A DNA stretch of 48,901 bases from a virus (IMGVR_UViG_3300045988_155985); one strand, 5' to 3'. Counted from the first letter of the stretch, positions 1 to 48,901 are shown. The notes: generated by a model not told the origin, from the sequence alone. Made by a program: numbers and translations.

Positions 1-55
1 TTATACCCGAAACCGAGCGATACCCGCCCTGGTTAAACCGGAGATAACCCGATGA
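1..55 (+). promoter_or_regulatory. 3' part (conserved 5' leader and RBS) of the promoter-operator-leader cassette; identical to 48847-48901, so it continues from the window end
   Basis: Exact 55-bp identity between window start and window end; same leader precedes ATGs at 32394 and 41286. Confidence 0.5.
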
Positions 56-13994: not shown

Positions 13995-15457
13995 TGGGAT
14001 ATCGCCACGGTATTTATATATCTGAACTGGCTACATCTATAACTCCTCCAGTGCAAGTTAGTGCTGGGTTGATTGTCGCATTTGGTACGGCTCCTGTTAA
14101 TCAGTTAGAAGATCCAGCCTCAGCGGTAAATAAACCTATCATTGCTTATACATACGCAGAGGCCGTATCTAAAATAGGATATAGCACAAACTTCGAGAAA
14201 TATACTTTAAGCGAAGTAATTAAAGTCGCATTTGGAATATATGGTGTTGCGCCAGTTGTATTTATCAATGTGCTTGATCCAGCAAAGCATAAGAAAGACG
14301 TTACTGATGAGTTAGTAAAACTTTCTGGCGGGAAAGGTACGCTCTCTAACGATGGTGTCTTATATAAATCTGTTGTTGTGAAAAAAGCAGATGGTGATTC
14401 GCCTGGGTTAACGGTTGATACCGATTATGTGCTGGCGCTGGATGATAATGGCTATACGGTCATTACAGCTATTAGCGGAGGAAAAATTACCGAAAAAGAC
14501 GCTACTCTTAAGGTTAGTTATACGCATCTTGATCCCGGTGCCGTAACTAAAAATGACATTATCGGTGGTGTGGATTCCAACACTAAAGCCAATACAGGGC
14601 TTGAGTTACTGTCAGATGTGTATCCCCGCTTCAAGTTAGTTCCTGGACAAGTGATTGCACCTGGATTTAGTTCTGATAGTGAAGTTGGTCAGCTAATGGC
14701 GGCTAAAGCCGCGCTGATTAGTGAATTGTTCAAAGCAGAAGCTATAACGGATGCGCCGACCGATAAATCTACTATCAGTGATTACTCGGCTGTTCCTGAA
14801 TGGAAACAGAACAATAATCACATGGCCGCTAACCAGACAGTGTGCTGGCCGATGGTGAAACTTGGTGACAATATTTACCATCACTCAACCCATTTAGCGG
14901 CCGCAACATGCTTGCTGGATAGTCAGTATGGTGATATTCCATCACGTTCTCCGTCAAATATAAAACTACAGATGGACGGTGCTGTACGTAAAGATGGCAG
15001 TGAAGTATGGCTTAACATTAGCCAGGCAAACTACTTAAATGGACAGGGGATTGTAACAAGCCTTAATTTTGATGGTTGGAAATCATGGGGAAACCGTAAT
15101 GCTATTTATCCAACATCTACAGACCCCAAAGACGCATTTCGTGTTTGCCGACGTATGTTTAACTGGGTGGGTAATACGTTAATTCTTTCGCATTGGTCAA
15201 AAATAGACAATCCTGCAAACCGTCGATTAATTGAATCGATTGTTACAAGTGCGAATATTTGGCTTAACGGCCTCACAGGTAATCAGGATATTGCAGGTGG
15301 TGTTGTTACCTTTGATCAGTCTGAAAACACGATTACGTCATTAATGGACGGGATTGTTAAATTCCATGTAAAAATGACACCATTCTCACCTGCCAGAGAT
15401 ATTGAGTTCGTCATGGAATATAATCCTGATTATCTGCTGAACTTGTTTTCTGAATAA
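13994..15457 (+). CDS. tail sheath protein
   Basis: 487 aa immediately before tube, chaperone and tape measure; myovirus order. Confidence 0.8.
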   Translation: MGYRHGIYISELATSITPPVQVSAGLIVAFGTAPVNQLEDPASAVNKPIIAYTYAEAVSKIGYSTNFEKYTLSEVIKVAFGIYGVAPVVFINVLDPAKHKKDVTDELVKLSGGKGTLSNDGVLYKSVVVKKADGDSPGLTVDTDYVLALDDNGYTVITAISGGKITEKDATLKVSYTHLDPGAVTKNDIIGGVDSNTKANTGLELLSDVYPRFKLVPGQVIAPGFSSDSEVGQLMAAKAALISELFKAEAITDAPTDKSTISDYSAVPEWKQNNNHMAANQTVCWPMVKLGDNIYHHSTHLAAATCLLDSQYGDIPSRSPSNIKLQMDGAVRKDGSEVWLNISQANYLNGQGIVTSLNFDGWKSWGNRNAIYPTSTDPKDAFRVCRRMFNWVGNTLILSHWSKIDNPANRRLIESIVTSANIWLNGLTGNQDIAGGVVTFDQSENTITSLMDGIVKFHVKMTPFSPARDIEFVMEYNPDYLLNLFSE

Positions 15458-23564: not shown

Positions 23565-25799
23565 GTGAGTAAATTATTATTTACGATGACTGACGCCGGG
23601 CGTCAGGAGCTGGTTAATGCCAACAAAACAGGAACAAATAAAGTTGAGATTGTTTCTGTTGGTTTAGGTAGTAGATATTATGTCACGTCAACTTCACAAA
23701 CAAATATAACAAACGAAATAAAACGACTTACCACAATAGGTGGCAAAGTTGTTTCCCCTGATACAATTCATGTAACAGCGAAGGATGATAGTAAAGATGA
23801 GTATGTTGTCCATACAATAGGATTGTATACGAATAAGGGTACGTTGTTTGCTGTATACTCACAAGAACAAGCAATAATAAATAAAGCATCATCTACTATC
23901 GCTTTAATATCAAGTGATATAGCAATTAAAACTCTTGATACTAAAAATATTACATTTGGTGATATTGAGTTTATTAATCCTCCCGCGACCGAAACTGTTG
24001 TTGGGGTGGCAAGATTTGCTAATGAACAAGAAATTGATGCAGGTACAGATGATTCCCTTGCTGTTTCAGCAAAGCGGCTTAAGCAAGCCATTGTGAAACA
24101 TGAGCAATCACGTAATCATCCTGATGCAACTTTAACCTCAAAAGGCTTTGTTCAACTTAGCAGCGCCACCAATAGCACGTCTGAAACGCTTGCTGCGACG
24201 CCTAAGGCTGTTAAGGCAGCATATGACCTTGCTAACGCTAAATACACCGCACAGGACGCTACCACAGCGCGAAAAGGGATTGTTCAGCTCAGTAGTGCCA
24301 CCAACAGCACGTCTGAAACGCTAGCAGCAACACCAAAGGCTGTTAAGGCAGCGTATGATCTTGCGGTCGGAAAGGCTCCGTCCAATCACACGCATTCGTG
24401 GGAGCAGATAACAAATGTGCCTGTAGCTTCACTGACTGTAAGGGGAATAACTCAGCTCAGTAGTGCCACTAACAGCACGTCTGAAACGCTGGCTGCGACA
24501 CCAAAAGCTGTTAAGGCGGTAATGGATGAAACGAACAAGAAAGCGCCCTTAAACAGTCCTGCGCTGACCGGAACACCAACAACACCAACTGCGCCAAAAG
24601 GTACTAACAATACTCAGATCGCAAGCACGGCTTATGTTATGGCTGCGATCGCTGCCCTCGTGGACTCGTCGCCTGACGCACTGAATACGCTGAACGAGCT
24701 GGCTGCGGCGTTGGGCAACGACCCGAATTTTGCGACCACCATGACTAACGCGCTTGCGGGTAAGCAACCGAAAGATGCCACCCTGACGGCGCTGGCCGGG
24801 CTTGCTACTGCGGCAGACAGGTTTCCGTATTTTACGGGGAATGATGTTGCCAGTCTGGCAACCCTGACAAAAGTTGGGCGGGATATTCTTGCGAAATCGA
24901 CCGTTGCCGCCGTTATCGAATACCTCGGTTTGCAGGAAACGGTAAACAGGGCTGGTAACGCCGTGCAAAAAAATGGCGATACCTTGTCCGGTGGGCTTAC
25001 TTTTGAAAATGACTCAATCCTTGCTTGGATTCGAAATACTGACTGGGCGAAGATTGGATTTAAAAATGATGCCGATGGTGACACTGATTCATACATGTGG
25101 TTTGAAACAGGCGACAACGGCAATGAATATTTCAAATGGAGAAGCAAACAAAGCACCACAACAAAAGACCTGATGACGCTGAAATGGGATGCACTAAATA
25201 TTCTTGTTAATGCCGTCATTAATGGCAGCCTTGGAGTTGGTACGACGAATGCGTTAGGTGGTAGCTCTATTGTTCTTGGTGATAATGATACCGGATTTAA
25301 ACAGAATGGAGACGGTATTCTTGATGTTTACGCTAATAGTCAGCGAGTATTCCGCTTTCAGAATGGAGTTGCTATTGCTTTTAAAAACATTCAGGCAGGT
25401 GATAGTAAAAAATTCTCGCTATCCAGCTCCAACACCTCCACAAAGAATGTAACGTTTAATTTATGGGGTGCTTCAACCCGTCCAGTAGTTGCAGAGTTAG
25501 GCGATGAGGCAGGATGGCATTTCTATAGCCAGCGAAATACAGATAACTCGGTAATATTTTCTGTTAACGGTCAGATACAGCCCAGCAACTGGGGGAATTT
25601 TGATTCACGCTATGTAAAAGATGTTCGCCTGGGTACGCGAGTTGTTCAATTGATGGCGCGTGGTGGTCGTTATGAAAAAGCCGGACACGCAATTACCGGA
25701 TTAAGAATCATTGGTGAAGTAGATGGCGATGATGAAGCCATCTTCAGACCAATACAAAAATACATCAATGGCACATGGTATAACGTCGCACAGGTGTAA
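23565..25799 (+). CDS. tail fibre protein: constant N-terminal part plus variable C-terminal part in the currently expressed orientation
   Basis: 744 aa; GTG start after AAGGAA; internal fibre repeats; crossover site at 24923-24946 lies inside the gene. Confidence 0.8.
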   Translation: MSKLLFTMTDAGRQELVNANKTGTNKVEIVSVGLGSRYYVTSTSQTNITNEIKRLTTIGGKVVSPDTIHVTAKDDSKDEYVVHTIGLYTNKGTLFAVYSQEQAIINKASSTIALISSDIAIKTLDTKNITFGDIEFINPPATETVVGVARFANEQEIDAGTDDSLAVSAKRLKQAIVKHEQSRNHPDATLTSKGFVQLSSATNSTSETLAATPKAVKAAYDLANAKYTAQDATTARKGIVQLSSATNSTSETLAATPKAVKAAYDLAVGKAPSNHTHSWEQITNVPVASLTVRGITQLSSATNSTSETLAATPKAVKAVMDETNKKAPLNSPALTGTPTTPTAPKGTNNTQIASTAYVMAAIAALVDSSPDALNTLNELAAALGNDPNFATTMTNALAGKQPKDATLTALAGLATAADRFPYFTGNDVASLATLTKVGRDILAKSTVAAVIEYLGLQETVNRAGNAVQKNGDTLSGGLTFENDSILAWIRNTDWAKIGFKNDADGDTDSYMWFETGDNGNEYFKWRSKQSTTTKDLMTLKWDALNILVNAVINGSLGVGTTNALGGSSIVLGDNDTGFKQNGDGILDVYANSQRVFRFQNGVAIAFKNIQAGDSKKFSLSSSNTSTKNVTFNLWGASTRPVVAELGDEAGWHFYSQRNTDNSVIFSVNGQIQPSNWGNFDSRYVKDVRLGTRVVQLMARGGRYEKAGHAITGLRIIGEVDGDDEAIFRPIQKYINGTWYNVAQV
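24145..24530 (+). repeat. three imperfect direct repeats of about 78 bp inside the tail fibre gene
   Basis: Repeated peptide QLSSATNSTSETLAATPKAVKA; copies at about 24151, 24283 and 24451. Confidence 0.6.
24923..24946. repeat. left inverted repeat / recombination site of the invertible segment
   Basis: CCTCGGTTTGCAGGAAACGGTAAA; exact reverse complement at 27888-27911; core resembles gix/cix sites as recalled. Confidence 0.7.
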
Positions 25800-26364: not shown

Positions 26365-26892
26365 TTATTCAGGCTTTTGTGGCCATTCAGGATTTGCCGT
26401 ATCCACACGGCTGACCAGAACACTGTAGCGTTCCCATGATTCCAGTCGTGCGCGTTCCTCATCCGTCGCCATATTCAGCCTGACAGCGCGCTCCAGTGGC
26501 TGAATAACGCTTTCTGCTTCGGAAAGTAACGCGGCCTTTTGTGATTCGGCCTGTTGTTGCTGTTCGTCAGCCGTATAAATCCGTTTAACCACAGCTCCGT
26601 CCTTAAACATCCACTTACCGGAATCATCGGCCCGACGATTGGTTGTTATATCGGGAACCTCAACGACGCTAAAACCTTCAGGGTTAAGCGTGGATGCATC
26701 TTTGGTGATGGCGACAATAATATTATTTTCATCGTAAACAATCTTTATGGTGTCTGGCTGAAAGTTTTTCACTTCCTCATACCAGTTTTTTCCGTCCTCA
26801 GAGTAAAGCCAGATAACTCCGTGTTTCTTTGTTAACTCATACTGTTCCAGTGTTTTAGCGTTACCCGCTTTTATGTTCTTTAAGTGCATCAT
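26365..26892 (-). CDS. alternative tail fibre assembly protein (silent orientation)
   Basis: 175 aa; paralogous N-terminus [14 protein letters not shown]; convergent to 25803-26336. Confidence 0.75.
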
Positions 26893-26893
26893 A

Positions 26894-27904
26894 TTAAACG
26901 CTCGCTACATTATACCAGGTGCCATTTATATACTTTTGAACGGGTCTGTAATAAACGCCCGCTATATTATCGGCAGAATTGGACCCTGTATCCTGAACAT
27001 TAATACCAGTCAATACATGACCTGACGGGCACTGGAAATTCCATGTTTGCCAGTTGTTCACGCCATAATATTGCTGTGAACCAAGTCGAACATCTTTCAC
27101 ATAACGGGAATCAAAGTTACCGTAATCTGAGGGATTAACACGCCCTGTAATATTTATGGTTTTATTACTTTGAATACTGCCGGAGACAAAGCGCATAACA
27201 TGGACGTTATTAGCATAAACATCCAGATACCCGTCGCCATTTTGTTTAAATCCCGTGTCATTATCACCCAAAACAATCGAGTTACCGCCAAGAGCACTGG
27301 ATGTACCGATGCCCAGTGCACCATTCAATTGACCTCCAGATAATGACAACGCCCCAACATCAGCAGCAGTCGGTTTAATGTGCGAACTGTAAATTACATA
27401 TACAGTTCCATCTGTCAGACCTGTTGGTTTATTCGCTGTATAAGTTGGTGATGTATGAATCGTTACGCTGGCGTTACTGGTATAATCCCACTGAATATTA
27501 ACACCTGTGGCGTAATTACCTATTTCAACATAAACATCATAGGTATCACCTGATGTATTCACCCATGCAAAATTAGTAAATCCAACCGATGTCCGTCGCC
27601 ATAACGCACCAGTAAGACCTTTTGGATTTCCATTTCCCGCACGAAGAACAAGTTCAGATATACCAGCCTGCATAGGGGAGTTAACATTATATCCAGCACC
27701 ACCAATCAGGCTTATGTAAACCACGGAACTGGCTTGTGGCATTGTTACAGTTGCCAGTTTGAACCATCCAGCACCACCACTAAAAGACATGGTTGTTGAA
27801 TTTGTTGTGCCGATATTACGCAGGAATAGTTTTTTATCGGGAATATCTGCGCCGTTCTGGTTTTTCTGTAATGCGCCAGAAGCCTGATTTACCGTTTCCT
27901 GCAA
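26894..27904 (-). CDS. alternative tail fibre C-terminal variable region (promoterless until inversion)
   Basis: Track start is TTG; encodes LQETVNQ which continues the fibre frame across the crossover site; shares [17 protein letters not shown] and C-terminal [11 protein letters not shown] with the plus-strand fibre. Confidence 0.7.
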
Positions 27905-27911
27905 ACCGAGG
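27888..27911. repeat. right inverted repeat / recombination site of the invertible segment
   Basis: TTTACCGTTTCCTGCAAACCGAGG, reverse complement of 24923-24946. Confidence 0.7.
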
Positions 27912-27985
27912 TTTTTGCGAATTGCCTCTGTGTCGTCTGAACGATATTTTTTCCCGCTTTTAGCAACAATCGCGGTTTAGAAAGT

Positions 27986-28540
27986 ATGCAATATGGTTAT
28001 GCGAGGGTGTCAACTTTTGACCAGAATTTGGAATTACAACTGGAGGCGCTCAGGAGTTTAGGATGTGACCGGATTTTTGAAGATAAAATATCCGGTGCTA
28101 AATCAAAACGACCAGGACTTGATAAGCTACTTAAGGTGTTACGGCCGGGCGATACGGTTATTGTCTGGAAGCTGGACCGAATGGGGCGTTCTCTGATTCA
28201 TCTTGTTGATTTACTTAACCATTTTTTATCAAACAACATTGAGTTTATTTCGATTACGGAAGGGATAAAAATTAGCACTTCAATTGGCCGCTTTGCCTAC
28301 ACGATGCTGAGTGCAGTCGCAGAGATGGAGCGGGAAAATATGATTGAAAGAACGCGTGCAGGATTGGCGGTGGCAAGGGCTAACGGCAGGATAGGAGGAC
28401 GCCGCTCAAAGCTGGCACCAGAGCAATGGGAACAGATCGGAAGGCTTATTGCGAATGGTGTTTCACGTAAGCGGATAGCGATTATCTTCGATGTTACCTT
28501 ATCCACGCTTTACCGCAGGTTTCCGGCTGGGAATCATTGA
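27986..28540 (+). CDS. serine-recombinase DNA invertase (Hin/Gin/Cin family)
   Basis: N-terminal GYARVSTFDQ with catalytic Ser, central resolvase motifs, C-terminal HTH; adjacent to the invertible segment. Confidence 0.9.
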   Translation: MQYGYARVSTFDQNLELQLEALRSLGCDRIFEDKISGAKSKRPGLDKLLKVLRPGDTVIVWKLDRMGRSLIHLVDLLNHFLSNNIEFISITEGIKISTSIGRFAYTMLSAVAEMERENMIERTRAGLAVARANGRIGGRRSKLAPEQWEQIGRLIANGVSRKRIAIIFDVTLSTLYRRFPAGNH

Positions 28541-29699: not shown

Positions 29700-30330
29700 C
29701 CCACCTGAATGATGAATCCGGTTTTACCGGAGGATTATCTACGTCGCAATAAAATATCTGTTCAAAAAACAATCTAAATTAATTTTCTCTAAACCTGAAC
29801 ACAGCGTAAATATCGCCTTTACAGGCATCAGCTAATCAAGTTATCCACAGTTTTGATATGTATATGCAAATGGTTTTTTATAATAGATGCACTAAACAAA
29901 TAAATGCAAAATCACTTTCTTTTATTAAAACTTTCTTTATTTAACTTACGCAGGCTTTGCCTGTGAATATGTTCGCCCTTGCAGCGAGCTAAAGCTCGCG
30001 CCGGTTCGAATCGCTACGCTCAAATATACCTCCTCCGGCACTTGCCGGAGGCATGGAGCAGCCTGATCATCCTTTTCGAAACGGCACGTTTCGAACTATA
30101 CAAAATCAATTTATATAAGGCCGAAACAAGGCCTACGGCCGGGCTTTGCAGGAGGAAGGGGCGAGCCTTATCAATAAACGTCGATAAATACGCACACAGT
30201 AGCCATCAGAACGCGATAAAACGTAAGAAACATCATTTCCTATTAGACATAGAAAACTTGTCTTATACGCAATGTAGTAAATTTCTATTGCCACATAGGA
30301 AAAGATTTCCTACCATCGTAGATATAATAA
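29700..30330. promoter_or_regulatory. candidate vegetative origin region downstream of repA
   Basis: Perfect DnaA box TTATCCACA at 29841-29849; AT-rich stretch; perfect palindromes at 29985-29998, 30032-30051 and 30075-30095. Confidence 0.4.
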
Positions 30331-30342
30331 ATGGAGATGGTT

Positions 30343-30630
30343 ATGGATAAAGATACTGTTTTAAAAATGTTGAATCCGGCTTGTTTAAAAAAAGCGGATG
30401 AATGGGAATCTCCTACATGTGGAGAAGTTCGGGCAGTCATTGGCCTGACCGGAATGAGCGGCTCGCAGTTGGCCAAAAAACTTGGCTTAAAAGATAGTCG
30501 CAATGTTCGCAACTGGCAGATGTTAAAGGAGTCCACATCCAGATCCAGCATTCCGTATGCAGCCTGGGCGCTGCTGTGTTACTTCGCTGGGTTAGGGTTA
30601 ATCTTCATTGATAACAAAACAGATGTTTGA
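30343..30630 (+). CDS. HTH (Xre-like) protein with C-terminal hydrophobic helix
   Basis: Segment MSGSQLAKKLGLKDSRNVRNWQ HTH-like; C-terminal IPYAAWALLCYFAGLGLIF. Confidence 0.4.
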   Translation: MDKDTVLKMLNPACLKKADEWESPTCGEVRAVIGLTGMSGSQLAKKLGLKDSRNVRNWQMLKESTSRSSIPYAAWALLCYFAGLGLIFIDNKTDV

Positions 30631-30653
30631 AACATGCAAATATGAGGTTTGTT

Positions 30654-30917
30654 ATGGAACTTGTACGCAAAACACGCAAAGAGTTCTTGGACCTGTATCG
30701 CATGGGAGCTTTCACTTGTGTTGTGGCTACCCAGGACGAAGTGACAAAAAGCTGGCGGCTTTTTGCTCTCAATAAAAAAGGGATTGCCGTTTTCATTGAA
30801 AAAGCCCGTGGTGGTATCCGCGAATGGGCGGGATTGAATTATGTGGCTGATTTTTGCGCAGCTATGGGGATTCGTCGCTGGGAAGTCCATATGCCAGGAG
30901 TAAAGTCACAAAAATAG
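30654..30917 (+). CDS. hypothetical protein, about 87 aa
   Basis: ORF track (TTG 30627); ATG 30654 has GAGG 7 nt upstream. Confidence 0.4.
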   Translation: MELVRKTRKEFLDLYRMGAFTCVVATQDEVTKSWRLFALNKKGIAVFIEKARGGIREWAGLNYVADFCAAMGIRRWEVHMPGVKSQK

Positions 30918-32280: not shown

Positions 32281-32393
32281 TATTTATATAATTATAGATT
32301 TATATAAAAAGTGCTTTACAGGTGGGAAAAAATTTCCTAAGGTTATACCCGAAACCGAGCGATACCCGCCCTGGTTAAACCGGAGATAACCCG
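32281..32393 (+). promoter_or_regulatory. promoter-operator-leader cassette, copy B
   Basis: AT-rich repeat 32281-32310; -35-like TTTACA 32315-32320; 17-bp spacer with inverted repeat GGAAA-AAA-TTTCC; -10-like TAAGGT 32338-32343; conserved 50-nt leader. Confidence 0.5.
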
Positions 32394-32774
32394 ATGAGCA
32401 TGATTAAAATCCGCAAAAACGCTTTCCTTAAAATTCAAACTATCCTGGCTGGTTCTGTTGGCGTGATTTGCCGTTCTTCCTCAAGCCGCATCGATGACGG
32501 CTACGATGATGAGTATCGTGTGTCCTCATGCGATGAGGCTTTAACCTGGCTGAAGGAGAATCAGGAACGTGCCCAGGTATATCTGGAAACAGAGAACGGC
32601 AATCAGATGCTGCGTATTAGCGGTCGTTATGGATTTGAAACTACATTCATGGCCTATTTTAATCAGGCTTACTTTGACAAGGAGTTGGCTTGGTACACTG
32701 ATCGCATGAGCAAAAGCGAGCCAGCCCCGATTACACCGCCGAACAATAAACCATTTTTATTCCTCGTTAAGTAA
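32394..32774 (+). CDS. hypothetical protein, 126 aa, first gene of cassette B
   Basis: ORF track; ATG within conserved leader context. Confidence 0.5.
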   Translation: MSMIKIRKNAFLKIQTILAGSVGVICRSSSSRIDDGYDDEYRVSSCDEALTWLKENQERAQVYLETENGNQMLRISGRYGFETTFMAYFNQAYFDKELAWYTDRMSKSEPAPITPPNNKPFLFLVK

Positions 32775-32782
32775 ACACAATG

Positions 32783-32809
32783 CGCAAAGTGTCATTTTGA
32801 CACTTTGCG
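32783..32809. promoter_or_regulatory. perfect 27-bp palindrome (12-bp arms), candidate operator
   Basis: CGCAAAGTGTCA-TTT-TGACACTTTGCG; half-site AAAGTGTCATTTTGA recurs at 41116-41130. Confidence 0.35.
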
Positions 32810-32837: not shown

Positions 32838-33110
32838 ATGACGGGTTATGAATTGAAATTATGGCGTCGTGGGATGAACTGGACGCAGGAGCGAGCCGCC
32901 GAAGAATTTGGGATATCGTTGGCTACATATAAGCGATATGAGAAGGGGGAGCCGCCGAGGGTCATTGAGATGGCCATTCGCGTTCTGTCGTTTGACGATA
33001 TGGTGAAGGATCTTTCACACCTTGATAAAGACGCGATTCTGTTAAGGCTGCAAACCCTTGTATGGGAAAAGGTTAAAGTGTCGTCAGAATTGGAACAAGG
33101 GATCAAATGA
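32838..33110 (+). CDS. HTH (Xre-like) transcriptional regulator
   Basis: HTH WTQERAAEEFGISLATYKRYE; ATG 32838 after GAGGAGGG (track start 32805 is TTG inside the palindrome). Confidence 0.55.
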   Translation: MTGYELKLWRRGMNWTQERAAEEFGISLATYKRYEKGEPPRVIEMAIRVLSFDDMVKDLSHLDKDAILLRLQTLVWEKVKVSSELEQGIK

Positions 33111-33919: not shown

Positions 33920-35065
33920 TTATGGTCTGCTTTTCTGTGCCAGCTTATCAGCACATGTTTTTATCAGATCCTGTAGTGTCCTGGCTGGCAGGTTTGCATC
34001 CAGAACGCTGAGTATGCTGTTGTGATCAGCCTGGTCGACTACTTTGCCTGTCGGTGGTAGTAGCTTGAGCTGAGGATTCAGGTTTTCGTCAAAGCTGATA
34101 AGTGCTCTGGCGTTTCTGAGCAGATCAAGAAGTAAGGCTGATATCACATTTTCCTGAGTCATTGCTGGCAGATTTAGCGCCGCTTTAGTTTTCCCTGTTG
34201 CCTTGTCAAACTCCTTGATTAGTTCCTTCCTGTAGTTCGGTTCCGTTAATAGCCGATTATGCTCTGTTGCCGCGCGGATAATCGTTTTTTCCTGGTATAG
34301 TCGTTTAGCCAGATCACGCTCGTACTGTGTTTTTAACACGCTGCTGATAGCGTTAAAGGCTTCAATGTAGGCCAGCTTGATATCTTTCACGCCTGGACCG
34401 TCGATGCTCTCCATGAGCAAGGTAAATCCGTCTTTTGTCATGCGATAGATTGTTATTTCGCGGTCGCTTCCTTCCAGCGGTCGTTGTTCTTTAAAAAAGT
34501 GACGCGCCGCAGCTGTGCGAGGAATGCGTAACGCATCGATGGCCATAACGATGGAATTGTTTGTGGTGCTGAATGCCTGGGCAACATCGGCTGAGGTTGT
34601 GAGTGGCTCGTTATTGCACACCTTAATGTAAAACATCGGTTTGGCGTTGAGCGTATCGACAACCTCACGAGCATTGTTTGGCGAGACGGTTACGGTCGCG
34701 GCCGTTTGCGCGTTCTGGTTGAAATAGCAGTCTTCCAGTTTTTCGAACACATCCCAAGCCTGATCGGTTTCAAGCATTTTGGCGTGACGTGCAGCCCCGC
34801 GTTCTGTCCAGAGGATGAGGGAGCGGACTTTAGGTGAAACTGGATTTTGTGAGTAGTTTAAAGCTACCCGCAATTCTTTAAGGTCATTACCAACAACTTT
34901 GAAAAAGTGTTTCCCTTCAACGAAACGTACTTTGTTCTCATGATGATTCTGGCGAATACGCACCGGCTCAGTGCCGTAAAGCTGTGCCAGTAACTCGGTA
35001 GTAATGACAGGGATTTGGTTATGCAGGATAGGCTGTAGGGTGTTAACGGTCGGAAGCGTTTTCAT
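33920..35065 (-). CDS. antirepressor (Ant-like) with ORF6N/Rha-like domains
   Basis: 381 aa; N-terminal VITTELLAQLYG and central ADVAQAFS segments resemble antirepressor/Rha-family domains. Confidence 0.7.
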   Translation of the reverse strand: MKTLPTVNTLQPILHNQIPVITTELLAQLYGTEPVRIRQNHHENKVRFVEGKHFFKVVGNDLKELRVALNYSQNPVSPKVRSLILWTERGAARHAKMLETDQAWDVFEKLEDCYFNQNAQTAATVTVSPNNAREVVDTLNAKPMFYIKVCNNEPLTTSADVAQAFSTTNNSIVMAIDALRIPRTAAARHFFKEQRPLEGSDREITIYRMTKDGFTLLMESIDGPGVKDIKLAYIEAFNAISSVLKTQYERDLAKRLYQEKTIIRAATEHNRLLTEPNYRKELIKEFDKATGKTKAALNLPAMTQENVISALLLDLLRNARALISFDENLNPQLKLLPPTGKVVDQADHNSILSVLDANLPARTLQDLIKTCADKLAQKSRP

Positions 35066-35253
35066 TTTGTACCTCCCATAACTACTTTGGTTACGAGGGC
35101 GATTTTTGCGTCAGAAACAGCGTTATCGTTGCTGGCGATGCGCATAGCTTCTCGCTCAATGATTTCAGCCAGGCGGAATTTATCGGCGTATGAGGCTTTC
35201 TTGAGAAGGATCTTTACGAGGTTGACGTAATAGTCATGGGGTAGGTTTGTCAT
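35062..35253 (-). CDS. small protein translationally coupled to ant (icd-like position)
   Basis: 63 aa; stop TGA overlaps ant ATG (ATGA). Confidence 0.45.
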   Translation of the reverse strand: MTNLPHDYYVNLVKILLKKASYADKFRLAEIIEREAMRIASNDNAVSDAKIALVTKVVMGGTK

Positions 35254-35418
35254 TGTGATGATTCCCTTAAAGGTTAAGGATACTCACCACCGTCAGGTTC
35301 CAATCATTGGGTGGTGAGACGTGCAGGGTTGGAACTACCGGACACAATGACGAACCGGCGAGTCTTACGACTCCCCCGCACGCCCCACCATAATTTGGGT
35401 GTAGCAGTGCTTTACGCA

Positions 35419-35440
35419 TAAAAAAACCGCTAACGCGGTA
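35419..35440 (-). terminator. minus-strand rho-independent terminator
   Basis: On the minus strand: hairpin ACCGCGTTAGCGGT followed by TTTTTTT. Confidence 0.5.
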
Positions 35441-35585
35441 TGCGCCATTGTGTCTACGGGGTTCCAATCCCGACCGTAGATTTTGCTACGGCTCGGAAAG
35501 TGTCCACCAATGGCGCATTCATGTCAATACGGCGGGATTTTAACAGAGACAACCACATAGCGTGGGTTTATTGGTAGGCAGAAAC

Positions 35586-35760: not shown

Positions 35761-35999
35761 AATGAAGTTTTTTAACTTCTTCGGATGTAATTACATGTAA
35801 TAAAAGCATTTGTTATTCCTTCATTATGAAGGCGAGGACGTGTAATATGGCTTGGGGCCTTTTCGCCGATTCGCACCCGGGCACCGACTTTAAGGAAAGG
35901 ATCATCCACTTGCCGTACACGCAAGCACAAGCGGTGTGCTTGCTCTCGCGTCATTTTCGTCGGTGGAGATGCCGTGAAACGGCCTGTAAGGGCCACACA

Positions 36000-36122
36000 A
36001 TGAAAAAATACTACATGTGTATTTTTATCGTTGTTACTGGAGCTTTGTTTACGCCACATGGGGAGGGTTGGAAGATTACTGATAACGCTCTGAATGTGAC
36101 GATAAACATTAGCAGCAAGTAG
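36000..36122 (+). CDS. small hydrophobic peptide, 40 aa
   Basis: MKKYYMCIFIVVTGALF N-terminus; ATG 36000; strong terminator immediately downstream. Confidence 0.3.
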   Translation: MKKYYMCIFIVVTGALFTPHGEGWKITDNALNVTINISSK

Positions 36123-36128
36123 CGATTA

Positions 36129-36150
36129 GGCCCCTTCGGGGGCCTTTTTT
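36129..36150 (+). terminator. rho-independent terminator
   Basis: Hairpin GGCCCC-TTCG-GGGGCC followed by TTTTTT. Confidence 0.6.
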
Positions 36151-36372: not shown

Positions 36373-36627
36373 TTACTTCTGGTTGTATTGAGCCTTGAGT
36401 AACTCAAAAGACTTTGTCAGCACTTCTTTCAATGACATATCCATTGAGCTGGCGAACGTTTTGTACTCGCGTTTAAATTCAGGGTCGACGTTAAACGCCA
36501 TTTGTGCCCCACCTGATTTGGTTCTGGCTGGCGTTTCAGTCGGGTCGAAAACCTGCGGTTGTTCGATCGATGGCGGTACGCCTTTGCTGTTCTTCTTTGG
36601 TGGTTTTGATGGTGCGGCCATGTGCAT
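36373..36627 (-). CDS. small partition/centromere-binding protein, ParG-like (ribbon-helix-helix)
   Basis: 84 aa downstream of parA; basic flexible N-terminus and C-terminal RHH-like segment. Confidence 0.55.
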   Translation of the reverse strand: MHMAAPSKPPKKNSKGVPPSIEQPQVFDPTETPARTKSGGAQMAFNVDPEFKREYKTFASSMDMSLKEVLTKSFELLKAQYNQK

Positions 36628-36664
36628 CCCCTCTTATATAAATCTATAAAACTATAATTATATA

Positions 36665-37318
36665 TTACGCGGCAGTAGTCAGAGCCTCAAGCTGGTTGAT
36701 AATCCCCTGAATAACGTCGTCTGCCTTTTTGCGTGGCGCAACGTATGAGCACTCAATGAGGCTTAAGCCCTTATCCTGAGCTTTGCTCAGAGCTGGCTTG
36801 TGGGGAATGTACTTATCGACAACAAAGTATGGCGTATTAGCCAGGTACTCTTGGGCTTCAATATAGTCAGCTTCGTTTTCAGCCGCGCCGGAAAACACCA
36901 TGCAAATTTTCTTGATTGGTACACCCTTTTTAACGATGCCGTGAGCTGTGTTAACGGTGGTTTCCAGGTCATCGGTAGAGAATCTGGTTGGTAAAATAAC
37001 CATATCCAGAAATTCAGAGAGCTTCGGTACTGATTCAGATGCGTAGGCACCGCCATCGACGATAACCAGGTCGTATACTTCTGATTCGATGATTTTCTGG
37101 ACTTGTGATGGTGTGCCGCACGGCTGCGCCGCGATTGCTGGTTCGATATTGTTGGCCATTCTGCGTTGTACCCAACGCGTTACCGTTCCGTTAAGCACAT
37201 CCATATCGATCAGGCATACATTCCAGCCGGCCTTTGCATAAGCAACTGCTAAAGCACGGGCAATTGTTGATTTGGTTACGCCGCCTTTTCCGTTGAAAAT
37301 ACCTACAGAGATAGTCAT
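36665..37318 (-). CDS. parA: partition ATPase, small ParA (ParF-like, type Ib)
   Basis: Deviant Walker A GKGGVTKST; about 217 aa; ATG 37318 (track start 37333). Confidence 0.85.
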   Translation of the reverse strand: MTISVGIFNGKGGVTKSTIARALAVAYAKAGWNVCLIDMDVLNGTVTRWVQRRMANNIEPAIAAQPCGTPSQVQKIIESEVYDLVIVDGGAYASESVPKLSEFLDMVILPTRFSTDDLETTVNTAHGIVKKGVPIKKICMVFSGAAENEADYIEAQEYLANTPYFVVDKYIPHKPALSKAQDKGLSLIECSYVAPRKKADDVIQGIINQLEALTTAA

Positions 37319-37341
37319 TTGTCGAGACTCCATGTGTTTGG

Positions 37342-37446
37342 TTATATAATTCTATAAATCTATATTTATAGAACGAGGTAAGCATAACCAACTTTTTGGC
37401 GGATGAAAAGCGTTTTATATAATTATATAAAACTATAATCATATAA
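37342..37446. repeat. AT-rich TATAATTATA-type repeat cluster upstream of parA; candidate centromere/operator
   Basis: Two blocks (37342-37373, 37412-37446); a related block at 36632-36667 between parA and parG. Confidence 0.4.
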
Positions 37447-38629: not shown

Positions 38630-38747
38630 ACCACATTTAGTGGTTTTCACATGGTAAGACGAGAGGTGGACCACAAATAGAAGGTTATTTTTTGTTTCGC
38701 CCATTGAAAAACTCACGATATGTGGTTTTAATACCACATATCGTGGT
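38630..38747. promoter_or_regulatory. operator cluster in the cI-cro intergenic region
   Basis: ACCACATTTAGTGGT at 38630-38644, imperfect CTCACGATATGTGGT at 38712-38726, ACCACATATCGTGGT at 38733-38747, half-site at 38670. Confidence 0.5.
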
Positions 38748-40738: not shown

Positions 40739-41116
40739 GTGAGACGCGATCTGGATAGCTTGTTTGAGCTATGGGCGCTGTGGGTGCGCAATGGCTGCAA
40801 CGCCCGTAGCGGTTTCGCGTCGATGTTAGAAATGATGATGGTTACGCGCTGCCAGTTTACCGGAGGGGGCGGCGCACCAAATGACTCACTGGAAACCAGT
40901 ATCGAGGGAGCGGTGACGGCCCTCACGGTAGTTGATGAGACTGCGGCGCTGGTTGTCCGAATTGAATACGGGGCGTGGGAGATTCGGGGCCTCGACATAA
41001 ATGCACCGCATATTGATAAAGCCCACGCCCTTTCTCTTAGTCTCAGACAGTATCGCCGGAAGCTGGCAAAAGCCAGGGCGTATGTTGTCGACTATTTGAA
41101 AAAGCGAAGAGAGTAA
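40739..41116 (+). CDS. putative late-gene antiterminator, Q-like
   Basis: 125 aa; pattern LWALWVRNG...GFASM...LRQYRRKLAKARAYV resembles Q-family; sits before a promoter cassette. Confidence 0.4.
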   Translation: MRRDLDSLFELWALWVRNGCNARSGFASMLEMMMVTRCQFTGGGGAPNDSLETSIEGAVTALTVVDETAALVVRIEYGAWEIRGLDINAPHIDKAHALSLSLRQYRRKLAKARAYVVDYLKKRRE

Positions 41117-41166: not shown

Positions 41167-41285
41167 AAATCTATAAATATATAATTATAGATTTATATAA
41201 AAAGTGCTTTACAGGTGGGAAAAAATTTCCTAAGGTTATACCCGAAACCGAGCGATACCCGCCCTGGTTAAACCGGAGAAATCTG
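41167..41285 (+). promoter_or_regulatory. promoter-operator-leader cassette, copy C
   Basis: AT-rich repeat 41167-41203; TTTACA 41208-41213; spacer with GGAAA-AAA-TTTCC; TAAGGT 41231-41236; conserved leader. Confidence 0.5.
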
Positions 41286-42353
41286 ATGAATAAACAAGAA
41301 ATTATTTCTGACTGGATCAACAACCCTAACAGCCTGTTAAGCACTGATACTGGCTACCTATTACGCCATGTTAATGGTCGTATGGTCAAAAGCGATGAGC
41401 ACGAAACCTTTTTCTTTGTTGAAGACGATGGGCGCATCTATGAGGATGGTTACTCTTATGAAGCCCAAACTGGTTGTATCCCTGCGGAGCTGGTGGACGT
41501 AACAGAAGATCTGCGCAAAGCATGGCTTGAACAGCAGCAGCGCGGAGATGATTACGTAAACACCTATCAGGAACGCCAGAACGCGCGTCTTGCCCGATAT
41601 ATTGCTCGTGCAGAAAAAGCCAGAAAAGAAGGTGCGGTAGCGCATAAGCGAGCGCATGACCTGTTGGATGTGATCCCGTTAGGCCAGCCGATTTTAGTTG
41701 ACCATTATAGCGCGAAAGGCCATCGCCGCCGTTTGTCTAAAGCTGATGCGTTATTAAGAAAAGCGTTTGTTGAATGCGAAAGTAAAGCATCACACTACGA
41801 GAGCAAAGCCGCAGGTGTTGGTCGTAATGGAATTTCGTCTGATGATCCTGATGCGCTATTTAAGTTGCTTCGTAAGCTGCAAGGCTGCATGAAGTCACAC
41901 GTCAAAATGAAGGCCGCAAATAAGGCCATTCGCAAATACAAAAAAGACCAATTACAGCAGCTTTCTGCATTAATCGATCTCAGGTTTACAGAAAGCGAAG
42001 CCAAAGAGTTACTGGCCGGAGATTTCTGTGGGCGCATCGGATTCCCTTCATACGCACTGAGCAACAATAACGCCGAAATCAAACGACTACAGAGCCGTAT
42101 TAAGGAGCTTGAATCGGTCAAGTCTGTAACAGGAGCACAGCGCGAAGAATACGACGGCTTTTCTATGGAGATAGATCCAGAGGATAACCGCATCCTGTTT
42201 TATTTCCCTGGCAAACCAGAGGCAAACATTCGTTCGCTGCTTAAATCACGCGCCTTTAAGTGGAGTCCAACCCGTAATGCATGGGTTCGCAAGATTACTC
42301 CAAACGCCCTGGCTGATGCCCGATATCTAAAAGAATCGCTATTGAAAGCCTGA
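41286..42353 (+). CDS. hypothetical protein, 355 aa, first gene of cassette C
   Basis: ORF track; basic helical C-terminal half; no catalytic motif recognised. Confidence 0.5.
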   Translation: MNKQEIISDWINNPNSLLSTDTGYLLRHVNGRMVKSDEHETFFFVEDDGRIYEDGYSYEAQTGCIPAELVDVTEDLRKAWLEQQQRGDDYVNTYQERQNARLARYIARAEKARKEGAVAHKRAHDLLDVIPLGQPILVDHYSAKGHRRRLSKADALLRKAFVECESKASHYESKAAGVGRNGISSDDPDALFKLLRKLQGCMKSHVKMKAANKAIRKYKKDQLQQLSALIDLRFTESEAKELLAGDFCGRIGFPSYALSNNNAEIKRLQSRIKELESVKSVTGAQREEYDGFSMEIDPEDNRILFYFPGKPEANIRSLLKSRAFKWSPTRNAWVRKITPNALADARYLKESLLKA

Positions 42354-42363
42354 CAGTAAGCCT

Positions 42364-42390
42364 ACGGCGGGACGTCTCCCGCCGTATATA
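42364..42390 (+). terminator. hairpin/terminator after the 355-aa gene
   Basis: Perfect 9-bp stem ACGGCGGGA-CGTC-TCCCGCCGT followed by AT-rich tract. Confidence 0.4.
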
Positions 42391-42430
42391 GAATTATATA
42401 TTTATATAAATGTATAAGGACGCCTCGACA

Positions 42431-45651: not shown

Positions 45652-45993
45652 GCTGTAGTGAGAAGCCATGCGATTACGAGCAGTATTCAGATATTCAGAG
45701 CGGGTAATGAAGCACATACAACCGAAAACATGGCAGAAACTGGACTCTATGGGAGCTAAGTTGGAGAAGATTACTCAACTTAAGCAGTGGCATATCGGCG
45801 AATATTATGGAAGTCCTGGTCGGGATGTTCGGTTGGTAAAAAGTTGAACATTGATTTTTTATTGATCGATTAACCACGATGTGAAGGTTTTTTTATGGGA
45901 AAACCTTGTTTTAGGTGGTAACTGGGTGTAGTGTTTCATTTAACGTAGTAAAACTGCGTTAAGCGATTACCGCGTAATTTGTTGCTTTATGAA

Positions 45994-46024
45994 GCCCTGC
46001 CTTTTTCGGCGGGGCTTTTTTTTT
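45994..46024 (+). terminator. rho-independent terminator immediately upstream of the lysis genes
   Basis: 8-bp stem GCCCTGCC-TTTTTC-GGCGGGGC followed by T9. Confidence 0.6.
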
Positions 46025-47644: not shown

Positions 47645-47813
47645 TATATATTTCTGTAATTATATAAATATATAGTTACAACATTCTATGCGCTTTTCTC
47701 ATGAGCGCACGCATCAACCATGTTTGTCTGATATGCCGCCGCGCCCAAAAATCCTGAATTTATTGGCTGGGATTTTCGTGCGCGGCGCCACACCAGACAA
47801 ACAGATCAAATAT

Positions 47814-48197: not shown

Positions 48198-48785
48198 ATG
48201 GAGGCAATTGCATTGTTTAATCTGATTTATGCAGATCCCCCCTGGGAATACAAAGACAAGTGTAAGGATGGGAATCGTGGCGCTGGTTTTAAGTATCCAA
48301 CGATGAAAGCTGAGGATATTGCTCGTATTCCTGTCTGGCAGCTTGCTAATCCTGAATCGTGTTTGTTGGCCATGTGGTGGGTTCCGACTCAGCCAGAAGA
48401 AGCGTTGCTGGTGGTGAAAGCATGGGGATTCAGGCTGATGACCATGAAGGGCTTCACATGGAACAAATGTGGTAGCCGACAGCCAGACAAGCTGGTGATG
48501 GGGATGGGGCATATGACTCGTGCAAACAGTGAAGATTGCTTGTTTGCGGTAAAAGGCAAACTGCCGACCCGCCTTGATGCGGGGATTATTCAGTCGTTTA
48601 CATCGCCTCGTCTGGAGCATTCTCGGAAGCCTGATGTGGTCCGTGACAAGCTGGTAAAGCTGTTAGGCGATGTTCCTCGTATTGAGCTGTTTGCTCGCGG
48701 TGATTTACCTGATGGCTGGCATGGCTGGGGCAACCAGTGCAACGGAGGTATCCAGTTGCATGATGCTCTCTGGCAAATGTCATAG
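48198..48785 (+). CDS. DNA N6-adenine methyltransferase, MT-A70 family
   Basis: LIYADPPWEY (DPPW motif); 195 aa. Confidence 0.75.
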   Translation: MEAIALFNLIYADPPWEYKDKCKDGNRGAGFKYPTMKAEDIARIPVWQLANPESCLLAMWWVPTQPEEALLVVKAWGFRLMTMKGFTWNKCGSRQPDKLVMGMGHMTRANSEDCLFAVKGKLPTRLDAGIIQSFTSPRLEHSRKPDVVRDKLVKLLGDVPRIELFARGDLPDGWHGWGNQCNGGIQLHDALWQMS

Positions 48786-48901
48786 AATTATATAATTATA
48801 GATTTATATAAAAAATGCTTTACAGGTGGGAAAAAATTTCCTAAGGTTATACCCGAAACCGAGCGATACCCGCCCTGGTTAAACCGGAGATAACCCGATG
48901 A
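48786..48901 (+). promoter_or_regulatory. promoter-operator-leader cassette, copy D (same physical copy as window start on the circle)
   Basis: AT-rich repeat 48786-48815; TTTACA 48819-48824; spacer with GGAAA-AAA-TTTCC; TAAGGT 48842-48847; leader continues as 1-55. Confidence 0.5.

Follow-up and report, generated by a model that had tools for sequence, protein, structure and literature searches.

The window analysed here is the complete 48,901-nucleotide viral contig IMGVR_UViG_3300045988_155985, a phage-plasmid in which one promoter-operator-leader cassette is present three times. Judged by its homology to the klcA and kleA promoters (klcAp and kleAp) of IncP-1 plasmids, the cassette is of a described kind, namely the KorC-operator promoters of kil-kor regulons, and a homologue of KorC is encoded on the same element. 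An earlier note on this DNA did not recognise the cassette from any described phage system and has to be corrected in this respect. The cassettes are quite probably strong σ70 promoters of the IncP-1 kil-kor type that carry two operators and a structured leader. What is new is the occurrence of the cassettes in a myovirus-type phage-plasmid, at the head of its accessory, lysis and structural operons, along with the replacement of the KorA operator by iterons that are predicted to bind a partition protein and evidence for a conserved leader hairpin. A regulatory cassette known from decades of work on conjugative IncP-1 plasmids is here found ahead of phage late and lysis operons as well, a concrete instance of a virus reusing plasmid regulatory logic. 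The repeat of a widespread ~48-kb Escherichia coli phage-plasmid family gains a name and a testable regulator, and the genes concerned are annotated as hypothetical.

The cassette and its KorC homologue

A repeat search of the window identified one family of three 114-nt copies at 32284–32397 (the reference), 41177–41290 (92%) and 48788–48901 (99%). An alignment of the copies presents an identical stretch from the AT-rich repeats through the Shine-Dalgarno (SD) sequence. Relative to copy 1, copies 2 and 3 are offset by +8893 and +16504, respectively. The components of each copy are:

32284–32396, + strand: cassette copy 1, with iterons at 32285–32306, −35 TTTACA at 32315–32320 and −10 TAAGGT at 32338–32343
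32324–32338, + strand: predicted KorC-type operator of copy 1, GGGAAAAAATTTCCT, in the 17-bp spacer
Leader of copy 1, + strand: predicted transcription start site at ~32350, hairpin at 32353–32376, SD sequence GGAG at 32382–32385, ATG at 32394
41177–41288, + strand: cassette copy 2, with iterons at 41170–41199, −35 at 41208–41213, operator at 41217–41231 and −10 at 41231–41236
Leader of copy 2, + strand: hairpin at 41246–41269, ATG at 41286
48788–48901, + strand: cassette copy 3, with iterons at 48781–48810, −35 at 48819–48824, operator at 48828–48842 and −10 at 48842–48847
Leader of copy 3, + strand: hairpin at 48857–48880, ATG at 48898 (equivalent to 52), running into window positions 1–55
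1–55, + strand: duplicate of 48847–48901, an overlap from circular assembly that holds the copy 3 leader and the ATG of a 73-aa gene (52–273)

Since positions 1–55 are identical to 48847–48901 over all 55 bp, the contig is circular and the element is ~48.85 kb in length. The earlier note had described a ~110-bp module present three times, the third copy continuing into 1–55, and consisting of TTTACA, a 17-bp spacer with GGAAA-AAA-TTTCC, TAAGGT, a ~50-nt leader, GGAGA and the ATG. The repeat search and the overlap at the junction agree with this description, and every part was found in the sequence.

Each copy heads a different operon. Copy 1 is located in the accessory region ahead of a two-gene unit made up of a 126-aa gene and an RstR-like helix-turn-helix (HTH) gene (32838–33110). 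Copy 2 follows the last early gene, which encodes a Q-like protein, and heads a DUF3560 gene and a block that reaches to the holins, endolysin, tRNA-Ile and MT-A70. Copy 3 drives the 73-aa gene, after which come terminators and then the terminase-to-tail operon. The first genes after copies 1, 2 and 3 encode 126, 355 and 73 amino acids and are mutually unrelated, as had been noted.

The gene content of the element is that of a phage-plasmid and includes repA, parA, a cI-like S24 repressor, a P1 immI-like block (C4 RNA, icd and ant), holins, endolysin, terminase, portal, and a sheath-and-tube tail with an invertible fibre segment. The + strand carries every gene from 38766 across the junction to 26336. 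Its close relatives are ~70 E. coli plasmids (47–50 kb, including the ATCC 25922 plasmid), plasmids from other enterobacteria, and the Yersinia phages vB_YpM_39/41/44. The cassette is typically present in three copies in these relatives (a median of 3 places per matching E. coli genome) and likewise in 3/3 of the Yersinia phages. A chance origin of the repeat is excluded because ~70 E. coli plasmids and three Yersinia phages have three copies each. Among the close relatives L005, L007, L011 and L012, the −10 element is polymorphic (TAAGGT / TATGGT), sometimes between copies within one genome.

In the IncP-1 plasmid R751, klcAp and kleAp have the form AAAGTGC TTGACA GGYTAGGACATTTTGTCC TAATAT ..GAAGGCCGGGCAT..CGCCCAGGTC..ACCGGAGAG.TTCCGATG, with spacer variants GG(T/C)TAGGACATTTTGTCC between TTGACA and TAATAT. 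The cassette of the window reads AAAGTGC TTTACA GGTGGGAAAAAATTTCC TAAGGT ..GAAACCGAGCGATACCCGCCCTGGTTAAACCGGAGATAACCCGATG. From AAAGTGC to the ATG, the window is identical to these two R751 promoters at 56/86 and 57/87 positions (~65%), and the homologous span extends from about −45 to the ATG. The blocks in common are AAAGTGC, TTKACAGG, CCGRGC, GCCC.GGT, ACCGGAGA and CCGATG. This places R751 as close to the window as the phage-plasmid lineage L022, and closer than the lineage L017. The spacer palindrome of the window, TGGGAAAAAATTTCCTA, occupies the same 17 positions as TAGGACATTTTGTCCTA in R751 and matches it at 11 of them; positions 6 and 12 are changed symmetrically. The two R751 promoters are themselves copies with 82/90 identical positions (91%). 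The same module is found ahead of kleA or klcA in the IncP-1 plasmids pRSB223, pMCBF6, pALTS33 and pAOVO02 and in an IncP-1-like plasmid, L099, whose klcAp has ACCGAGC and AAACCGGAGA..CCGATG in common with the window.

The regulation of these plasmid promoters has been described. The klcA, kleA and kleC promoters of RP4 are under KorC control (PMC12365149), and in the korC operon of pOXA-48 the KorC site is located between the −35 and −10 (PMC12365149). Operators for KorA with the consensus GTTTAGCTAAAC are present at klcAp, kleAp and kleCp (PMC2665229). Strong repression of klcA by KorA and KorC gives way to a ~120–220-fold induction upon entering a new cell (PMC7314908), and kil genes are harmful if unrepressed (PMC10871194). 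The RA3 KorC is likewise a global regulator, with two of its promoters having arisen by duplication (PMC7414963).

The cassettes of the window resemble the IncP-1 (RK2/RP4, R751) promoters in having a spacer-filling palindrome that abuts the −10, near-identical copies before unrelated operons, a KorC encoded on the replicon, and the same leader hairpin and ACCGGAGA..CCGATG translation start. Unlike IncP-1, the host replicon is a tailed phage-plasmid rather than a conjugative plasmid, and the korC-like gene has its own operator-bearing promoter, whereas the IncP-1 korC is the last gene of the klcA operon. The downstream genes also differ, since they include lysis and structural operons and no similarity to KlcA or KleA was found for the first genes. 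The KorA operator (GTTTAGCTAAA) was not found at the cassette promoters of the window, where AT-rich iterons with an 8-bp period take its place upstream of the −35. The RA3 regulon of IncU, which can be likened by description only, is similar in that KorC globally represses several promoters; unlike the regulon considered here, it controls replication, stability and transfer modules rather than phage genes.

A search of the window with the dyad pattern returned four sites (0.48 matches expected), comprising the three cassettes and a fourth site at 30297–30311. This last site is found in the promoter of the korC-like gene:

30288–30316, + strand: fourth promoter, TTGCCA-17-TACCAT, with AGGAAAAGATTTCCT at 30297–30311 in the spacer and neither iterons nor leader hairpin
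30343–30630, + strand: korC-like gene encoding a 95-aa XRE-type HTH protein

The 95-aa protein and R751 KorC share 52% identity (E 5e-23). A database homologue with the same 52% identity (P0046) is encoded on IncP-1-like plasmids in the korC slot, immediately behind klcA and klcB (L099). The AlphaFold model of the 95-aa protein (pLDDT = 84) was closest to the HTH domain of AcrIF24 and to Aca1, followed by C-proteins and HigA2; the structure of Aca1 was solved in complex with palindromic DNA. Since KorC has no Pfam model, links of this kind go unnoticed. The palindrome in the korC-like gene's own promoter implies autoregulation, and 30288–30316 is likely to be an autoregulated promoter. The same promoter also drives a 96-aa gene (30627–30917) within 30288–30917, and both genes are hypothetical in RefSeq relatives.

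From these comparisons, the KorC-like repressor is the best candidate for the protein that binds the palindrome. The earlier note had proposed a factor acting on the inverted repeat, which remains the best reading; however, the regulators it had named (the Q-like gene, the cI-like repressor and the HTH gene at 32838–33110) are less suitable candidates than the KorC-like protein. The cI-like repressor was rejected as the dyad binder on account of its own region, which has an unrelated inverted repeat. This repeat, at 38714–38745, has perfect 13-bp arms. It is found where the cI-like repressor gene and the early operon diverge, bears no relation to the palindrome of the cassettes, and probably serves as the primary operator.

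Conservation of the cassette, leader hairpin and iterons

Diverged loci were fetched from viral contigs and assemblies by way of homologues of the 125-aa Q-like protein. Three cassettes were counted in L013, two in the stretch covered of L014, two in L022 and one in L004, and up to four tandem cassette-plus-gene units are present in L015–L018, L017 and L023. While the sequence varies, the order is constant across lineages: a lineage-specific iteron array, the −35, a 17-bp spacer, the −10, nine nucleotides, a two-part hairpin, G(R)AGAUA and the ATG. The −35 variants are TTTACA, TTGCAT and TTGAAG, and the −10 variants are TAAGGT, TATGGT, TATTAT and TATAAT. In all lineages, the spacer is 17 bp and contains a dyad of the form AGGW-N7-WCCT adjoining the −10. 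When viral contigs were scanned for ACCGAGC..AAACCGGAGA, the matches were mostly due to chance and no further lineage came to light. The korC-like genes are found only in loci with the cassette, and the Q-like gene is found in all loci. In L013 and L022 the korC-like gene has the same stand-alone dyad promoter, and in L015–L018, L017 and L023 it is inside a cassette-driven operon. The earlier reading of the repeat as a promoter-operator-leader module that defines a regulon is supported.

The copies within each genome share that genome's own variants (L013, L014, L017, L023 and R751), which points to homogenisation by concerted evolution or to co-selection, and not to a neutral scar. A promoter region copied twice in recent times with no shared regulation would agree with the 92–100% identity of within-genome copies; nevertheless, this is highly improbable and already contradicted by the retention of three copies in ~70 plasmids, by the shared variants, and by an architecture kept in at least 5 diverged lineages and IncP-1 plasmids with lineage-specific operators, iterons and stems.

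The leader had been thought to be conserved for its own sake, and a structure prediction of the RNA had been proposed as a check. Folded singly, the leaders give one common hairpin (z-scores −1.0 to −3.2), and RNAalifold predicts the same stem. The hairpin spans +4 to +27, its stem beginning three nucleotides past the predicted start site in all lineages. Across 20 distinct leaders from phage-plasmids, six core pairs form in 20/20 and the loop is hypervariable. Three of the stem pairs present swaps between GC and AU together with G·U intermediates, which points to selection on the + strand RNA rather than on a DNA dyad. Overall, 90.6% of stem cells are paired compared to ≤41% when the partners are slid by 1–3 columns. 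With six IncP-1 leaders added, 89% are paired and the picture is kept. The hairpin is thus conserved with covariation in plasmid and phage-plasmid versions alike, which agrees with the view that the leader is maintained for itself. An alternative hairpin that would sequester the SD sequence (CUGG/CCGG) was rejected, as it is present in the window only and, by eye, absent in L017 and L023. No described function for the leader hairpin was found in the literature searched. It may, with low confidence, be regarded as a 5'-terminal stabiliser or a translation-setting element.

The AT-rich repeats of the TATAATTATA type had been listed among the parts of the module; they are more than AT-richness of a promoter, being iterons in common with the partition locus. 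The pattern MTATAAWN at an 8-bp period has 23 matches in the window compared to 0.03 expected, and these form eight clusters. Three of them surround parA and the gene for its 84-aa partner, three belong to the cassettes (about −45 to −75), and single clusters precede the gene at 42410 and a tRNA. Those outside the cassettes, and the proteins concerned, are:

36636–37445: partition locus, with iteron arrays at 36636–36664, 37344–37372 and 37417–37445 flanking parA (36665–37318, minus strand)
36373–36627, minus strand: 84-aa ParG/omega-like ribbon-helix-helix (RHH) partner of ParA, the candidate iteron-binding protein
42387–42416: iteron array preceding the 42410 gene, a "type-2" module with a ribosome binding site region like that of parA
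47645–47674: iteron array upstream of tRNA-Ile

ParA, at 217 aa, has a match to CbiA/ParA/MipZ. In the 84-aa protein, a basic tail precedes a strand-helix-helix pattern like that of ParG and omega; the pattern is conserved in four lineages, and the β-strand itself varies by lineage. The iterons of other lineages differ in sequence, being of the GATATAAA type in L004 and L017, AAAGAWTT in L022, TAAATAAATATTTAAT in L002, L019 and L020, and ACGAAWTA in L024. In each case, the iteron is common to the parA region and the same promoter classes, and iterons co-vary with the par locus. The 84-aa protein is the best candidate for binding the iterons, which suggests a second role for the partition protein, as a transcription factor acting on phage genes.

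Omega of pSM19035 and ParG of TP228 are centromere-binding proteins that double as global repressors. In R751, the site upstream of the promoter is a TTTAGCGGCTAAA palindrome, presumably the operator of KorB (ParB), beside the KorA operator. Set against the iterons of the window, these upstream operators suggest that the phage-plasmid may have kept the logic of a partition-linked repressor upstream and KorC in the spacer, with a different partition protein. The KorB of IncP-1 is also a centromere-binding protein that doubles as a global repressor (PMC2665229). All of these systems resemble the present one in having short-repeat arrays that are found at several promoters besides the par locus, and a small RHH partner of a small ParA. 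They differ in that the units here are 8-bp and AT-rich (MTATAAWN) and the targets are promoters of phage operons, with iteron binding being predicted.

A second modular unit, consisting of an iteron array and then (G)GAGNCYTCGACAA(A)TG, is found at the parA start (37318–37345) and before the 42410 gene (42387–42412). In other lineages it directly follows the Q-like gene (L004 6331–6388; L023 10359–10430).

Proposed regulation and its alternatives

In the proposed mechanism, the KorC-type operator, a 15–17-bp palindrome (AGGA-N7-TCCT) that fills the 17-bp spacer, would be bound by the 95-aa KorC homologue, an HTH protein of a dimeric type, and the bound dimer would block RNA polymerase. The iterons upstream of the −35 would be bound by the small RHH protein of the partition system, the same protein that would mark the centromere, and would there co-repress or otherwise modulate the cassette promoters. 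The three promoters would be shut down in the plasmid-prophage state and, by analogy with zygotic induction in RP4, would fire hard in the absence of the repressors or when the repressors are titrated. The transcript would start ~7 nt past the −10 and form the +4 to +27 hairpin at once, followed by a strong SD sequence; most likely, the hairpin would stabilise the mRNA or set translation. Long-range expression of the lysis and structural genes would also need read-through of terminators, for which the Q21-like 125-aa protein is a candidate.

Several points weigh against this mechanism. The binders and the regulation of this element's operators are assigned from sequence, and the pairing of operator and KorC as cognates would follow from their co-occurrence. 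The operator arms (AGGAAA) are unlike those of the IncP-1 operator OC (TAGGAC/TAGGGC), so that cross-recognition is not implied. The RHH assignment of the 84-aa protein was made by sequence pattern, with no match in Pfam. The loci used for presence and absence are partial (±10 kb), and support for covariation comes from only ~4–5 independent lineages. Repression in the lysogen by the KorC-like and ParG-like proteins leaves the route of lytic derepression unexplained. Lastly, the palindrome could instead, or also, serve the Q-like protein, because the Q-like gene directly precedes copy 2 and both λ Q and Q21 bind within their own promoters.

This last point leads to the alternative that the cassette is a late promoter of the λ PR' type, in which the palindrome would be a Q21-like binding element and the three copies would be Q-loading sites where a paused polymerase is made terminator-resistant. 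The features that bear on it are:

40739–41116, + strand: 125-aa sigma-region-4/Q21-like protein, last gene of the early operon, candidate antiterminator
295–318, + strand: strong intrinsic terminator directly after the 73-aa gene of cassette 3
1169–1190: second strong terminator after cassette 3
42363–42386, + strand: GC-rich hairpin lacking a clean T-run, after the 355-aa gene and abutting iterons
45991–46018, + strand: strong intrinsic terminator ahead of the holin genes, inside the cassette 2 block
32782–32809: palindrome with perfect 12-bp arms and no T-run, CGCAAAGTGTCA TTTT TGACACTTTGCG, between the 126-aa gene and the RstR-like HTH gene

The palindrome at 32782–32809 may be an operator or attenuator. 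A hairpin had been claimed after each first gene; this stands for the 73-aa gene, where it is a strong terminator, while the 355-aa and 126-aa genes are followed only by hairpins that lack a U-tract.

The 125-aa gene ends 50 bp ahead of copy 2. A Foldseek search with the 125-aa protein ranked Q21 first, and the Q21 paper itself reports a resemblance to sigma region 4. An hhalign comparison to the 933W Q protein covered 100 columns (E 0.036) with a common N-terminal RD(L/I)xx(L/V)(F/L)ExW(A/G)xW motif. No Pfam family was matched, including Pfam Q, and no match was found in P1 by tblastn at E up to 10. A weak full-length match was made to NCBIfam PA0613_fam, named for a gene of the Pseudomonas aeruginosa pyocin locus for which no described function was found in the literature searched; searches on the Yersinia phages and on KorC in phage-plasmids likewise returned nothing useful. 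Since strong terminators (295–318, 1169–1190 and 45991–46018) are located between promoter and late genes inside a co-directional late block, an antiterminator is needed, and the 125-aa protein probably reads through the strong terminators downstream. The Q-like antiterminator that had been proposed at 40739–41116 is thus weakly supported, by fold resemblance to Q21 only.

For the palindrome, the 125-aa protein is a weaker candidate than the KorC-like protein. Across the lineage alignments, no −10-like TAnnnT hexamer is conserved from +1 to +25, so that a sigma-dependent pause element, and with it a λ-type Q-loading site, is not evident. The binding element of Q21 is similarly located within −40 to −1 of its promoter, but it is a direct repeat of 8-bp subsites rather than a dyad. 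The same dyad is present in the korC-like promoter, in the plasmid-maintenance region. The IncP-1 plasmids have the cassette with KorC, and there is no Q-like gene in the inspected parts of L099 and R751; conversely, the Q-like gene has no such cassette behind it in L004, L015–L018, L023, L002 and L019. As a whole, the PR' interpretation is improbable. In common with the Q/PR' arrangement of lambdoid phages (λ, 21 and 933W), a regulator gene comes ahead of a promoter that looks constitutive, a short first unit, a strong terminator and late genes, and the regulator has a Q21-like fold. The resemblance in working applies mainly to copy 3. Unlike that arrangement, the cassette has no sigma-dependent pause element, a dyad in place of a direct repeat, three copies and the character of a plasmid kor promoter.

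The late promoters of phage P1 that depend on Lpa were also considered. They are similar in having a dyad upstream of a TANNNT −10 that is repeated at many late operons of a phage-plasmid. In P1 (NC_005856), however, the dyad is a 9-bp AAGTNACTT box at −22, 4 bp from the −10, with neither a −35 nor a conserved leader. This kind of promoter was rejected given the different box and spacing, the absence of a −35 in P1, and no Lpa homologue by tblastn at E up to 10.

A further alternative places the function in the leader, with the promoter similarity being secondary, so that the cassette would serve to deliver a cis-acting RNA such as a put-like antiterminator, a small RNA target or a translational operator bound by a protein. 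From IncP-1 plasmids to phage-plasmids, the hairpin is preserved by compensatory and G·U changes; it always begins at +4, and the SD block does not vary, all of which would be expected of such an RNA. The folding z-scores, however, are modest, and the hairpin is small (7–8 bp) compared to the two-stem put RNA. At the korC-like promoter the operator occurs but the hairpin does not. The cassette has no match in Rfam at the gathering score, and chance-level matches only at E up to 10. In antisense pairing, the leader is no more complementary to the C4, isrK-like and ryfA-like RNAs of the element than shuffled sequences are. An RNA as the functional core is thus very improbable.

Returning to the promoters as KorC-type switches, a broader interpretation is possible, if doubtful. 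An IncP-type kor circuit may have been rewired into the control of lysis and lysogeny, with KorC and the partition protein jointly silencing the accessory, lysis and structural operons in the plasmid state, a burst of release upon DNA entry or a rise in copy number, and the leader hairpin serving as an unrecognised functional RNA element. If so, virion production would be tied to the plasmid's own partition and repressor titre, and the hairpin would act, for example, as an aid to anti-pausing or antitermination or as a switch of mRNA stability.

Other features of the element

The P1 immI-like block (33920–35492, minus strand) contains a C4 antisense RNA at 35307–35395 (78 bits) and an isrK-like RNA at 35420–35492, along with an icd-like ORF and an antirepressor of the ORF6N/Ant type. 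The block could provide a route to inactivation of the repressor. A strong, full-length match to the ryfA RNA family (138 bits) adjoins the partition genes at 35853–36150.

In the tail region, three in-frame 93-nt repeats are found within the fibre gene, at 24140–24532. The invertible fibre segment (26365–28540) carries opposed fibre-assembly genes and a recombinase of the Cin/Gin type. In the related element L022, a 74-nt exact direct repeat (14744–15178) spans the starts of two neighbouring genes.

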